DNA of 64,000 bases, from NCBI GenBank assembly GCA_037431425.1, contig GCA_037431425.1_4129.1; one strand, 5' to 3'. The notes under the pieces were generated by a model. It had not been told where the DNA came from, did no database searches, and saw nothing but the letters and a program-made list of their open reading frames with translations. Made by a program: the position numbers and the translations under genes. The first letter of the stretch is position 1. Each line of letters starts with the position of its first letter. Shown in pieces: positions 6,844 to 7,661 of this stretch. Source of the stretch: a phage.

Positions 6844-6871
6844 TTGACTAAATAGTTCAGTGCTGTATAAT
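6844..6871 (+). promoter_or_regulatory. sigma70-type promoter (TTGACT-N16-TATAAT), repeat copy 1
   Basis: Part of a near-identical roughly 45-bp promoter repeat also at 7253 and 7633. Confidence 0.7.
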
Positions 6872-6902
6872 GTTTGTATCTTAACTTATATGGCAACTTG
6901 AT

Positions 6903-7256
6903 ATGTTTAATGAATATGAAGAAGCAATAAAACGCAACCTTGAAGATTATAAATTCCAATTTTATATTTGGGATGAACTGATGAGATTGTGTTTACAGTG
7001 GATGGAAAATGAAGAAACTCCTGACCAACGAATTGTTATATTAAACATCTTGTTACATAAAGATCTTAGTTCAATTAATATTGAAGTTTCTACTTATGTA
7101 GGAGAAGATTATAATCCCTATATTTCATATACTTCCCCTGTACCAAAGACAGAAGAAGAATATTTTCAAATGAGTACTGTACAAGAACCATTGTTCACTT
7201 ATGAGTTCTATAAGTACTTGATTGGTGAATTCAAAAAAATGCGAATTAATTCTTGA
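6903..7256 (+). CDS. hypothetical protein with C-terminal EEEYFQMSTV module
   Basis: Track ORF downstream of promoter 6844..6871. Confidence 0.55.
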   Translation: MFNEYEEAIKRNLEDYKFQFYIWDELMRLCLQWMENEETPDQRIVILNILLHKDLSSINIEVSTYVGEDYNPYISYTSPVPKTEEEYFQMSTVQEPLFTYEFYKYLIGEFKKMRINS

Positions 7257-7280
7257 CTAAATAGTTCAGTACTGTATAAT
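7253..7280 (+). promoter_or_regulatory. sigma70-type promoter (TTGACT-N16-TATAAT), repeat copy 2
   Basis: Near-identical to 6844..6871; contains CAGTACTG immediately upstream of -10. Confidence 0.7.
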
Positions 7281-7312
7281 GTTTGTATCTTAACAACAGA
7301 AGGTATATTGAA

Positions 7313-7552
7313 ATGGGTAAGTATTTTGTGAGTTATAGTTATAATGTATCACGAAAGATTCCACGCGGTGACGGAATGGGATGGTCTTATGATGCATATA
7401 CTTTAAATGAGTCATGTATCATCGAATTACAAGAAAAAGACCTTGACATTTTAAAAATCAAACAATATATTCTTGATGTTGAATTGGCACATCGTACTGA
7501 TACCTATCCAGATGTAAACAACATCAGCATCTTAGTACTAACCAAAGTATAA
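7313..7552 (+). CDS. hypothetical small protein
   Basis: Track ORF 7283..7552 starts with TTG inside the promoter; ATG at 7313 with SD agaaggta is preferred. Confidence 0.5.
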   Translation: MGKYFVSYSYNVSRKIPRGDGMGWSYDAYTLNESCIIELQEKDLDILKIKQYILDVELAHRTDTYPDVNNISILVLTKV

Positions 7553-7632
7553 GATAAAAAGAACTTTACTAAATAATTCCACTGGAGATTAATATGTTTA
7601 AAGATGAACGTCCAGATTTGTAAAAAAAGTAC

Positions 7633-7661
7633 TTGACTAAATAGTTCAGTACTGATATAAT
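7633..7661 (+). promoter_or_regulatory. sigma70-type promoter (TTGACT-N17-TATAAT), repeat copy 3
   Basis: Same TTGACTAAATAGTTCAGTACTG core; drives the GC-richer segment 7668-8002. Confidence 0.65.

Follow-up and report, generated by a model that had tools for sequence, protein, structure and literature searches.

Genomic context of the repeated block

Within a 64,000-nucleotide stretch of phage DNA (NCBI GenBank assembly GCA_037431425.1, contig GCA_037431425.1_4129.1; hereafter the window, meaning the whole stretch), a near-identical block with the sequence of a promoter recurs ahead of several small genes and RNAs. The window belongs to an Asteriusvirus jumbo coliphage of the PBECO4/121Q/BF17 type, related to RaK2. 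Its closest records are Caudoviricetes and fall within Asteriusvirus, not Straboviridae. In megablast searches with positions 6000-9000, Escherichia phage BF17 matched at 94% identity over the full length, and about 55 other records of Asteriusvirus, Klebsiella, Salmonella and Proteus phages gave patchy coverage of 58-90%. The G+C content of the window is 33.7%. Small, tightly packed plus-strand genes occupy positions 1 to ~47 kb, together with six tRNA genes and a gene for a sigma-70-family sigma factor (20761-21726). We presume that this is the early, hyperplastic region of a RaK2-related jumbo phage.

The blocks, numbered P1 to P4, head four kinds of unit: a 117-aa gene (gene A), a 79-aa ORFan (gene B), a pair of structured non-coding RNAs (RNA1 and RNA2) and a tRNA (Table 1). 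Gene B DNA is present in 2 of about 57 related phage records. It has no match in PHROG or Pfam, and its protein was found in only 3 clusters among 5.8 billion.

Table 1. Predicted promoter blocks, the units they head and related elements in the window
Feature	Position	Strand	Description
P1, promoter block copy 1	6839..6885	+	A-tract 6832-6841; -35 TTGACT 6844-6849; CAGTGCTG 6858-6865; -10 TATAAT 6866-6871; shared downstream GTTTGTATCTTAAC
Gene A, 117 aa	6903..7256	+	phrog_34619; headed by P1
P2, promoter block copy 2	7248..7294	+	-35 7253-7258; palindrome CAGTACTG 7267-7274; -10 7275-7280
Gene B, 79-aa ORFan	7313..7552	+	headed by P2; rare inserted cassette
Relic block copy CTTTACTAAATAATTCCACTG	7564-7584	+	no -10; right-hand repeat flanking the gene B cassette
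9-codon mini-ORF MFKDERPDL	7594-7623	+	follows the relic block (joint entry 7564..7623)
P3, promoter block copy 3	7627..7661	+	-35 7633-7638; palindrome 7647-7654; 17-nt spacer; -10 7656-7661
RNA1, structured non-coding RNA, ~190 nt	7664..7853	+	from P3 (predicted)
RNA2, second non-coding RNA module	7860..8007	+	ends in a hairpin-plus-T7 terminator (T-run 8001-8007)
Gene C, 125 aa	8024..8401	+	phrog_38341
P4, promoter block copy 4 (TGGACAGTAGTATTCAGTACTGATATAAT, 8392-8420)	8386..8420	+	TGGACA 8392-8397; palindrome 8406-8413; -10 8415-8420; 5 nt upstream of tRNA-Ser
tRNA-Ser(GCT)	8426..8514	+	headed by P4
Family member TTGACA-N8-CAGTACTG-TATAAT-GTTTATATCAAA	24139..24166	+	more distant; at cassette indel
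Family member TTGACA-N8-TAGTACTG-TATAAT-GTTT	36725..36752	+	
Family member TTGACA-N8-CAGTACTG-TATAAT-GTT	61028..61055	+	
GGTTGACTTCGGTCAGCC-T-run-TATAAT block	~29860, 32655-32700, 33994, 38905, 42309-42340, 42880-42911		several copies at indel junctions with relatives

Copies and anatomy of the predicted promoter block

Read 5' to 3', the block consists of an A-tract, the hexamer TTGACT (TGGACA in P4), a spacer that ends in the 8-bp palindrome CAGTACTG, and TATAAT. The spacer is 16 nt long in P1 and P2 and 17 nt long in P3 and P4. The original prediction had reported a near-identical block at 6843 and 7253 and, slightly varied, at 7633, each preceding a different small gene or RNA. TTGACT starts at 6844, 7253 and 7633, which places those positions correctly to within 1-2 nt, and the three copies do head different units: P1 the 117-aa gene, P2 the 79-aa gene and P3 a stretch lacking any conserved ORF, which turned out to contain the two structured RNAs. 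Two copies had been missed, a fourth at 8392-8420 and a decayed one at 7564-7584.

Direct reading of the sequence and a repeat finder both revealed the block, a repeat far beyond chance. Segments 6839-6885 and 7248-7294 are 96% identical over 47 nt (repeat-finder family D5), and a 28-mer searched with up to three mismatches recovered copies 1 and 2, against 0.00 expected from 100 shuffles. Inside the promoter, these two copies differ solely at 6862, where P1 has G in place of A and thus reads CAGTGCTG, not CAGTACTG. The 28-mer search misses copy 3 only because of a 1-nt insertion: this copy carries CTTGACTAAATAGTTCAGTACTG exactly (7632-7654), followed by one extra A before TATAAT, and diverges past TATAATG. 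Over a 17-nt core, three copies are 94-100% identical (repeat-finder family D4). At the position of P4, phages BF17 and G17 carry a perfect TTGACTAAATAGTTCAGTACTG.

All four intact copies resemble strong promoters. P1-P4 each match 11 of 12 positions of the sigma-70 consensus; all are intergenic, lie upstream of a gene or RNA and have the strand and position that suit it. With a 17-nt spacer, the TG that closes the palindrome is at -15/-14 and makes up a canonical extended -10 (TGnTATAAT). The A-tracts span about -38 to -53; A7-A8 tracts are found in the 20 nt before the -35 in P1-P3, and P4 has a T6/A4 tract. An ATG follows 32-33 nt past the -10 in P1 and P2, with a GAAGG Shine-Dalgarno (SD) sequence in P2, and P3 and P4 lead into RNA genes. 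A loose promoter scan gave 114 matches versus 116 in shuffled sequence and thus no excess. Matches of at least 11/12 numbered 29 on the gene-bearing plus strand versus 2 on the minus strand, so that the strongest class of matches is meaningful. Folding of the 59 nt that precede P1-P4 is no better than that of shuffled sequence (z = -0.6, -0.4, -0.8 and +2.0), and no terminator-like site was found on the plus strand upstream of any of the four. Two tRNA genes in the window begin 5-11 nt past a TATAAT (8415-8426 and 6137-6153). In the first case the primary transcript would start almost at the mature tRNA 5' end; in the second, AGTACTG lies between the -10 and the tRNA.

Since all copies are near-consensus promoters, each might have been kept near the optimum independently, with the indels at the locus being illegitimate events that survive merely when they fall between genes. 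The extent of the identity argues otherwise, as it covers positions that sigma-70 leaves unconstrained, namely the base before the -35, the whole spacer and, in copies 1 and 2, 14 nt downstream of the -10.

Cassette junctions in related phages

We chained blastn alignments of positions 1-47.5 kb of the window against the homologous 50 kb of BF17, PBECO4 and G17, and also aligned 9-kb pieces of five relatives at the locus. The 1.6-kb locus has at least five architectures across relatives and metagenome contigs. Between gene A and RNA1, each cassette junction falls within a block and shows homology overlap, a hybrid copy or a relic copy.

The window, BF17 and metagenome contig L030 share the order P2, gene B, relic block, mini-ORF, P3. 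Phages PBECO4, slurp01 and CMSTMSU lack gene B, and synteny with these three and with G17 breaks at 7272-7281, in P2. In its place, the three phages carry TTGA[C/A]TAAATA[A/G]TTCAGTAC[TG/CA] without a -10, followed by the mini-ORF and then P3. PBECO4 reads TTGACTAAATAATTCAGTACTG at the position of the relic, again followed by the MFKDERPDL mini-ORF. The alignments on the two sides of the missing gene overlap by 21-23 nt inside the block in PBECO4 and slurp01, and in CMSTMSU the aligned blocks abut without overlap. Gene B in the window, BF17 and L030 is an insertion bracketed by direct repeats of the block, intact on the left and relic on the right.

Other architectures have junctions of the same kind. 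In G17, phAPEC6 and Sharanji, gene A is fused straight to P3 with a 31-nt overlap, and of the two RNAs only the first 37 nt remain. In contig L029, gene B runs straight into an intact P3. In contig L028, gene A is absent and the upstream flank of P1 is joined via the block to the leader of gene B; further downstream, a block truncated exactly between its two AGTACT copies heads RNA2 alone. Two metagenome contigs begin inside the block, as expected if assembly broke at the repeat. G17 and slurp01 have a different tRNA-Ser gene immediately after P4. A 43-nt core is 100% identical between paralogous copies of different phages, compared with ~93% for the flanking DNA. A scan of IMG/VR for the exact 22-mer returned phage 121Q only.

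A second locus repeats the pattern. At 24139, BF17, PBECO4 and G17 have two promoter copies with an additional single-gene cassette of ~330 bp between them, where the window has a single hybrid promoter; the alignments overlap by 19-28 nt at the junction (24139-24187). Judged from the alignments, this event is an independent example of a block-flanked cassette indel. Junctions at blocks thus fall at 7272-7281, 7564, 7632 and 24160-24187, with overlaps of 19-31 nt. Each relative has 15-19 indel junctions across the 47 kb, and five of the six indels flanked by a direct repeat of at least 16 nt are at promoter-type blocks. The interpretation first offered for the repeat, promoter duplication or cassette shuffling, is supported by the rarity of gene B, the junctions inside the block, the hybrid and relic copies, and the recurrence at 24139.

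These junctions also bear on the idea of independently optimized promoters and illegitimate indels. In its favor, 52 of 69 breakpoints are intergenic irrespective of promoters, and promoter zones are not enriched for breakpoints within intergenic DNA. Most block-to-block junctions nevertheless have an exact repeat overlap. Overlapping homology, hybrid copies and relic copies are the marks that recombination between repeats leaves, and random deletion does not. We therefore find this explanation unlikely.

The crossovers could instead be the work of a site-specific system, integron-like or endonuclease-driven, that recognizes the palindrome and does not depend on general homologous recombination. 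The deletion in L028 exactly between two AGTACT copies would fit such a system, as would the homing-endonuclease genes found in tRNA regions of this type (NUMOD4 in L028, segD in SdyM_006). The published work on promoter-early stem-loops (PeSLs), a comparable system discussed below, leaves the choice between site-specific and homologous exchange undecided (PMC4122927). The crossovers seen here vary in position, however: they fall in TTGACT...CTG at 7272-7281 and in TATAATGTTTATATCAAA at 24160-24187, and in L028 the crossover is between the two AGTACT copies. Nor do breakpoints gather around AGTACT, with 4 of 59 within 15 nt versus 3.7 expected, and 10 versus 7.3 within 30 nt. Site-specific recombination is in our view very improbable, and the same counts do not support AGTACT as a general recombination hotspot. 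The full palindrome CAGTACTG is within 30 nt of 6 breakpoints versus 2.5 expected, a marginal excess (p = 0.04) whose signal comes from the promoter blocks themselves.

A probable role of the blocks as portable homology

The repeat, its consensus match, its conservation and the cassette junctions inside it are observed directly. We consider it likely that the blocks are a portable-homology family of strong early promoters for the host polymerase (sigma-70 type), and that recombination between blocks moves the cassettes. Copies 1-4 and the relic would then form one family of sigma-70-type early promoters with an UP-like A-tract. Each block would start a separate short transcription unit: gene A, the ORFan gene B, RNA1 plus RNA2, and tRNA-Ser. 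The blocks could act as portable homology because they share 20-47 nt of near-identical sequence in direct orientation. Recombination between two copies would delete, insert or exchange the unit between them, and the crossover may be unequal or may proceed via an excised circle, as shown for PeSLs in RB49/phi1. A newly arrived cassette would be expressed at once from a ready-made promoter. In RaK2 an unrelated promoter precedes the same RNA1, which would mean that the block took the place of other promoters or was added to them. The parts of this model that we infer are the activity of the promoters, their early timing and the route of recombination.

Several points weigh against it. Among the three relatives, breakpoints occur in 7 of 15 promoter-bearing intergenic regions versus 29 of 110 others (p = 0.059), so a wider link between promoters and breakpoints is at most suggestive. 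Promoter zones hold 13% of the breakpoints and 12.5% of the intergenic bases. According to these statistics, most of the turnover and indels in the region need no blocks. Surviving breakpoints would tend toward intergenic DNA regardless, since selection keeps genes intact. Some neighboring junctions are without a block, such as the loss of RNA1 and RNA2 in G17 at 7698/8021. The independent documented events amount to a handful. The activity of the blocks as promoters is itself predicted from sequence; we found no transcriptome for the Asteriusvirus phage group in the literature searched. What speaks for recombination at the blocks is the detailed structure of a modest set of junctions and not a genome-wide statistic.

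Comparison with PeSLs and other phage promoters

PeSLs are known from the T4-type phages RB49/phi1, PST/T4 and nt-1/KVP40 (Arbiol et al. 2010, PMC2839356; Comeau et al. 2014, PMC4122927). They are defined by an AT-rich stretch and a stem-loop just upstream of a sigma-70-like early promoter, followed by an SD sequence and ATG (PMC4122927). PeSLs sit in hyperplastic regions beside indels, and excision of mini-circles has been shown in RB49/phi1 (PMC4122927). Like PeSLs, the blocks described here are repeated, conserved and intergenic, with a near-consensus sigma-70 early promoter and an AT-rich upstream part. They also share the setting, a hyperplastic, ORFan-rich region with insertions, deletions and replacements between close relatives and degraded 'half' copies beside indels. 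Unlike PeSLs, they have no stem-loop or terminator upstream of the -35, and two of the four copies head RNA genes rather than an SD sequence and ATG. Their conserved spacer palindrome has not been reported for PeSLs, and their host genome is that of an Asteriusvirus (a RaK2-like jumbo phage), not of a Straboviridae or T4-type phage. The original prediction had called the blocks similar in spirit to PeSLs. This holds for the promoter, the AT-rich stretch, the ORFan context, the junctions and the half-copies, but not for the stem-loop or the T4-type genome. We class the blocks as working like PeSLs but not as strict PeSLs.

Early promoters have been described in other jumbo phages. RpoD-like early promoters with UP-like elements were predicted in CBB and GAP32 (PMC5259590), and sigma-70-like promoters of PA5oct were mapped around transcription start sites defined by RNA-seq (PMC7318152). 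As in these phages, promoters of the TTGACA/TATAAT type cluster here among short hypothetical genes, with a phage sigma-factor gene in the same region. The papers on these three phages give consensus hexamers only; near-identical multi-copy blocks, an AGTACTG spacer element or a link to cassette exchange are absent from them. We found no mention of promoters in the Asteriusvirus genome papers that we read, and no description of the promoter family or the palindrome in the literature searched on Asteriusvirus or RaK2.

A wider family of predicted promoters and its palindrome

The combination of palindrome and -10 extends beyond the 1.6-kb locus. AGTACTG lies 0-1 nt upstream of a TATAAT-like hexamer at 9 sites in the window, against ~0.44 expected. 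Besides the members listed in Table 1, there is a weaker one at 63837 and a variant at 28094 with TAGAACTG instead of the palindrome. The family members share TTGACA-N8-yAGTACTG-TATAAT-GTTT and differ in the remaining spacer, so that the palindrome is conserved in its own right and not merely inherited with the block. RaK2 has a promoter of this type ahead of a tRNA-Ser gene, and such promoters flank RNA1 in two metagenome contigs.

The core of the palindrome is abundant throughout the window. AGTACT occurs 184 times, compared with ~22 expected (8.4-fold), and is by a wide margin the most over-represented palindromic hexamer; CAGTACTG occurs 43 times versus 0.6 expected. The extended form of the core is TTCAGTACTGAA, with preferred flanks TTC...GAA. 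The same enrichment of AGTACT is found in BF17, PBECO4 and G17 and in RaK2, which belongs to a different genus. Copies are spread over the three reading frames (57/40/41), with 46 in non-coding DNA. Between the window and the three relatives, 80-85% of the AGTACT sites are fully conserved versus 47-49% for hexamers of the same composition (p = 8e-10 to 4e-14), and the peak of conservation is limited to the six core positions. The density of the hexamer is highest at 56000-64000 (7 per kb), for example in a triple at 60562-60621. Some copies are accounted for by terminator stems, by the promoter spacer and by a repeated AGTACTGAAAC block at 57.1-57.5 kb, and ~70% stand alone. Sites are mildly enriched 20-40 nt upstream of starts (9 versus 4) and drift toward the 3' ends of genes. 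We found nothing clear when looking for a fixed -10-like partner downstream of the non-promoter palindromes or for a sharp position relative to start codons.

One candidate for this site, the SlmA-binding sequence (SBS, GTGAGTACTCAC), was rejected. An SBS half-site requires G1, T2, purine3, A4 and G5 (PMC3020112); the 64 kb contain no full SBS, and among the 184 sites GTR precedes only 4 and YAC follows only 1. DNA of a related phage was cut as predicted by ten restriction enzymes, ScaI and RsaI not among them (PMC13070987), and is therefore not globally hypermodified.

An operator-like role of the palindrome in the promoters is possible. Under this explanation, which is compatible with a role in recombination, CAGTACTG would be bound by a dimeric phage (or host) protein that co-regulates the promoters, for example in early shut-off. 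The fixed register beside the -10 in promoters that in part differ in the remaining spacer is in line with an operator, as are the palindrome-bearing promoter before tRNA-Ser in RaK2 and the over-representation and conservation of AGTACT. About 95% of the AGTACT sites lie outside promoters, however, and in all three frames, so that they would titrate away much of any repressor specific for the promoters. In the homologous region of RaK2 the motif is missing from most strong promoters, and the TG that ends the palindrome could act simply as an extended -10. We regard the operator as a tentative proposal, to which we give the lesser weight.

A broader version would cover the sites outside promoters as well. 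The palindrome, at ~1,000 copies per genome when extrapolated from its density in the window, might be a genome-wide recognition site of RaK2-like jumbo phages, kept by purifying selection in coding and non-coding DNA. The promoter family would fix one copy beside the -10, allowing one factor to switch early units (ORFans, tRNAs and structured RNAs) together, and the blocks would be both regulon and recombination scaffold. This idea is speculative and, on present evidence, about as doubtful as the operator itself.

Two structured RNAs downstream of P3

Segment 7664-8007, which contains RNA1 and RNA2, is 97% conserved among Asteriusviruses, above the level of the neighboring genes, and its variation is concentrated in one hairpin loop. 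Homologs of RNA1 with 85-91% identity occur in the T4-like Bragavirus phages PM2, Pm5461 and SdyM_006, unannotated and precisely between tRNA-Gly and tRNA-Asp. Further occurrences of RNA1 are in RaK2-like phages and in an IMG/VR contig, and Aeromonas phage 65 has part of it. The homologs include L009 (1501-1687), L010 (1501-1681), L011 (1501-1700), L012, L017, L022 and L023; in a metagenome scan for the RNA1 core, three of seven hits looked spurious. RNA1 is always located inside tRNA clusters. Eight sequences share a consensus fold of 44 pairs, and compensatory changes occur in 14 of these.

RNA2 shows compensatory changes too. It has its own promoter in RaK2 and is found without RNA1 in JNE01 and L028. 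A 69-codon GTG ORF and a 21-codon ATG ORF in the RNA region were rejected as genes, given that variation is confined mainly to the hairpin loop and that a 2-nt indel in RaK2 breaks the reading frame, which is the only candidate ORF of RNA2. In Rfam, only tRNAs reached the gathering score, and the best other match in 7560-8060 had an E-value of 8.2.

The setting recalls the tRNA region of phage T4, where the tRNA cluster is likewise interrupted by small ORFs, by genes for mobile endonucleases (segB in T4) and by small stable RNAs (rnaC and rnaD). The place of RNA1 between tRNA-Gly and tRNA-Asp in Bragavirus phages is equivalent to that of the T4 stable RNAs. Unlike rnaC and rnaD, RNA1 and RNA2 would, by prediction, have a dedicated promoter instead of arising by processing of a tRNA precursor, and there is no significant sequence similarity. 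The best alignment to rnaC/rnaD spanned 17/21 nt (E = 0.05 in a 310-nt target), and homology was rejected as not convincing.

Other repeated elements in the window

A second repeated block, GGTTGACTTCGGTCAGCC-T-run-TATAAT, is a terminator hairpin with the -35 of the next promoter inside its stem. The hairpin, which overlaps the -35, has z = -3.0 at 32655 and -2.5 at 42309. Compared with PeSLs this family is truly composite, but its hairpin contains the -35 rather than preceding it. Next to the copy at 42309 is the right end of a 3.8-kb segment of the window (38485-42309) that has no counterpart in BF17, PBECO4 or G17.

A third block combines a CCAGTACT...AGTACTGG hairpin with a T-run and TATAGTATAATGAATAAAGGAGG, in this order, and stands before every one of seven ~380-aa paralogs on the minus strand at 47-56 kb. 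These seven tandem genes (47291-55969; ~370-450 aa) adjoin genes that are annotated as RCC1-like in PBECO4. Upstream of gene A, three tandem 54-aa paralogs (MTHEEWM..., phrog_10970) occupy 6345-6831 in 161-nt units of 76-78% identity; there are two copies in PBECO4 and slurp01 and three in BF17 and G17.

Further repeats lie in the ORF-poor region at 56-64 kb. At 57100-57830, blocks of AGTACTGAAACt.atctctat.taagg are each placed 7-9 nt before the ATG of a small ORF, and their TGAAAC is similar to TGAAACG, a divergent '-35' described in CBB and GAP32. At 62211-62300 there is a tandem direct repeat of 53 nt, with CAGTACTGAATAATAGTACTCCTATATAGAAAGA in each unit.

Implications

To our knowledge, PeSL-like portable early promoters that consist of the promoter only have not been described before in the Asteriusvirus group. 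They would extend promoter-mediated modular shuffling, described so far only for T4-type phages, to RaK2-like jumbo phages, and would indicate that portable homology needs no terminator hairpin and can be provided by a promoter on its own. The blocks also provide a concrete promoter model for the annotation of Asteriusvirus genomes, whose current records annotate none. Two by-products of the analysis may outweigh the promoters themselves: a strongly selected, 8-fold over-represented palindrome common to two genera, and an unannotated structured RNA of ~190 nt common to jumbo and T4-like phages. Shuffling at portable promoters would help explain how genomes of 350-380 kb turn over hundreds of ORFan genes yet keep them expressed.

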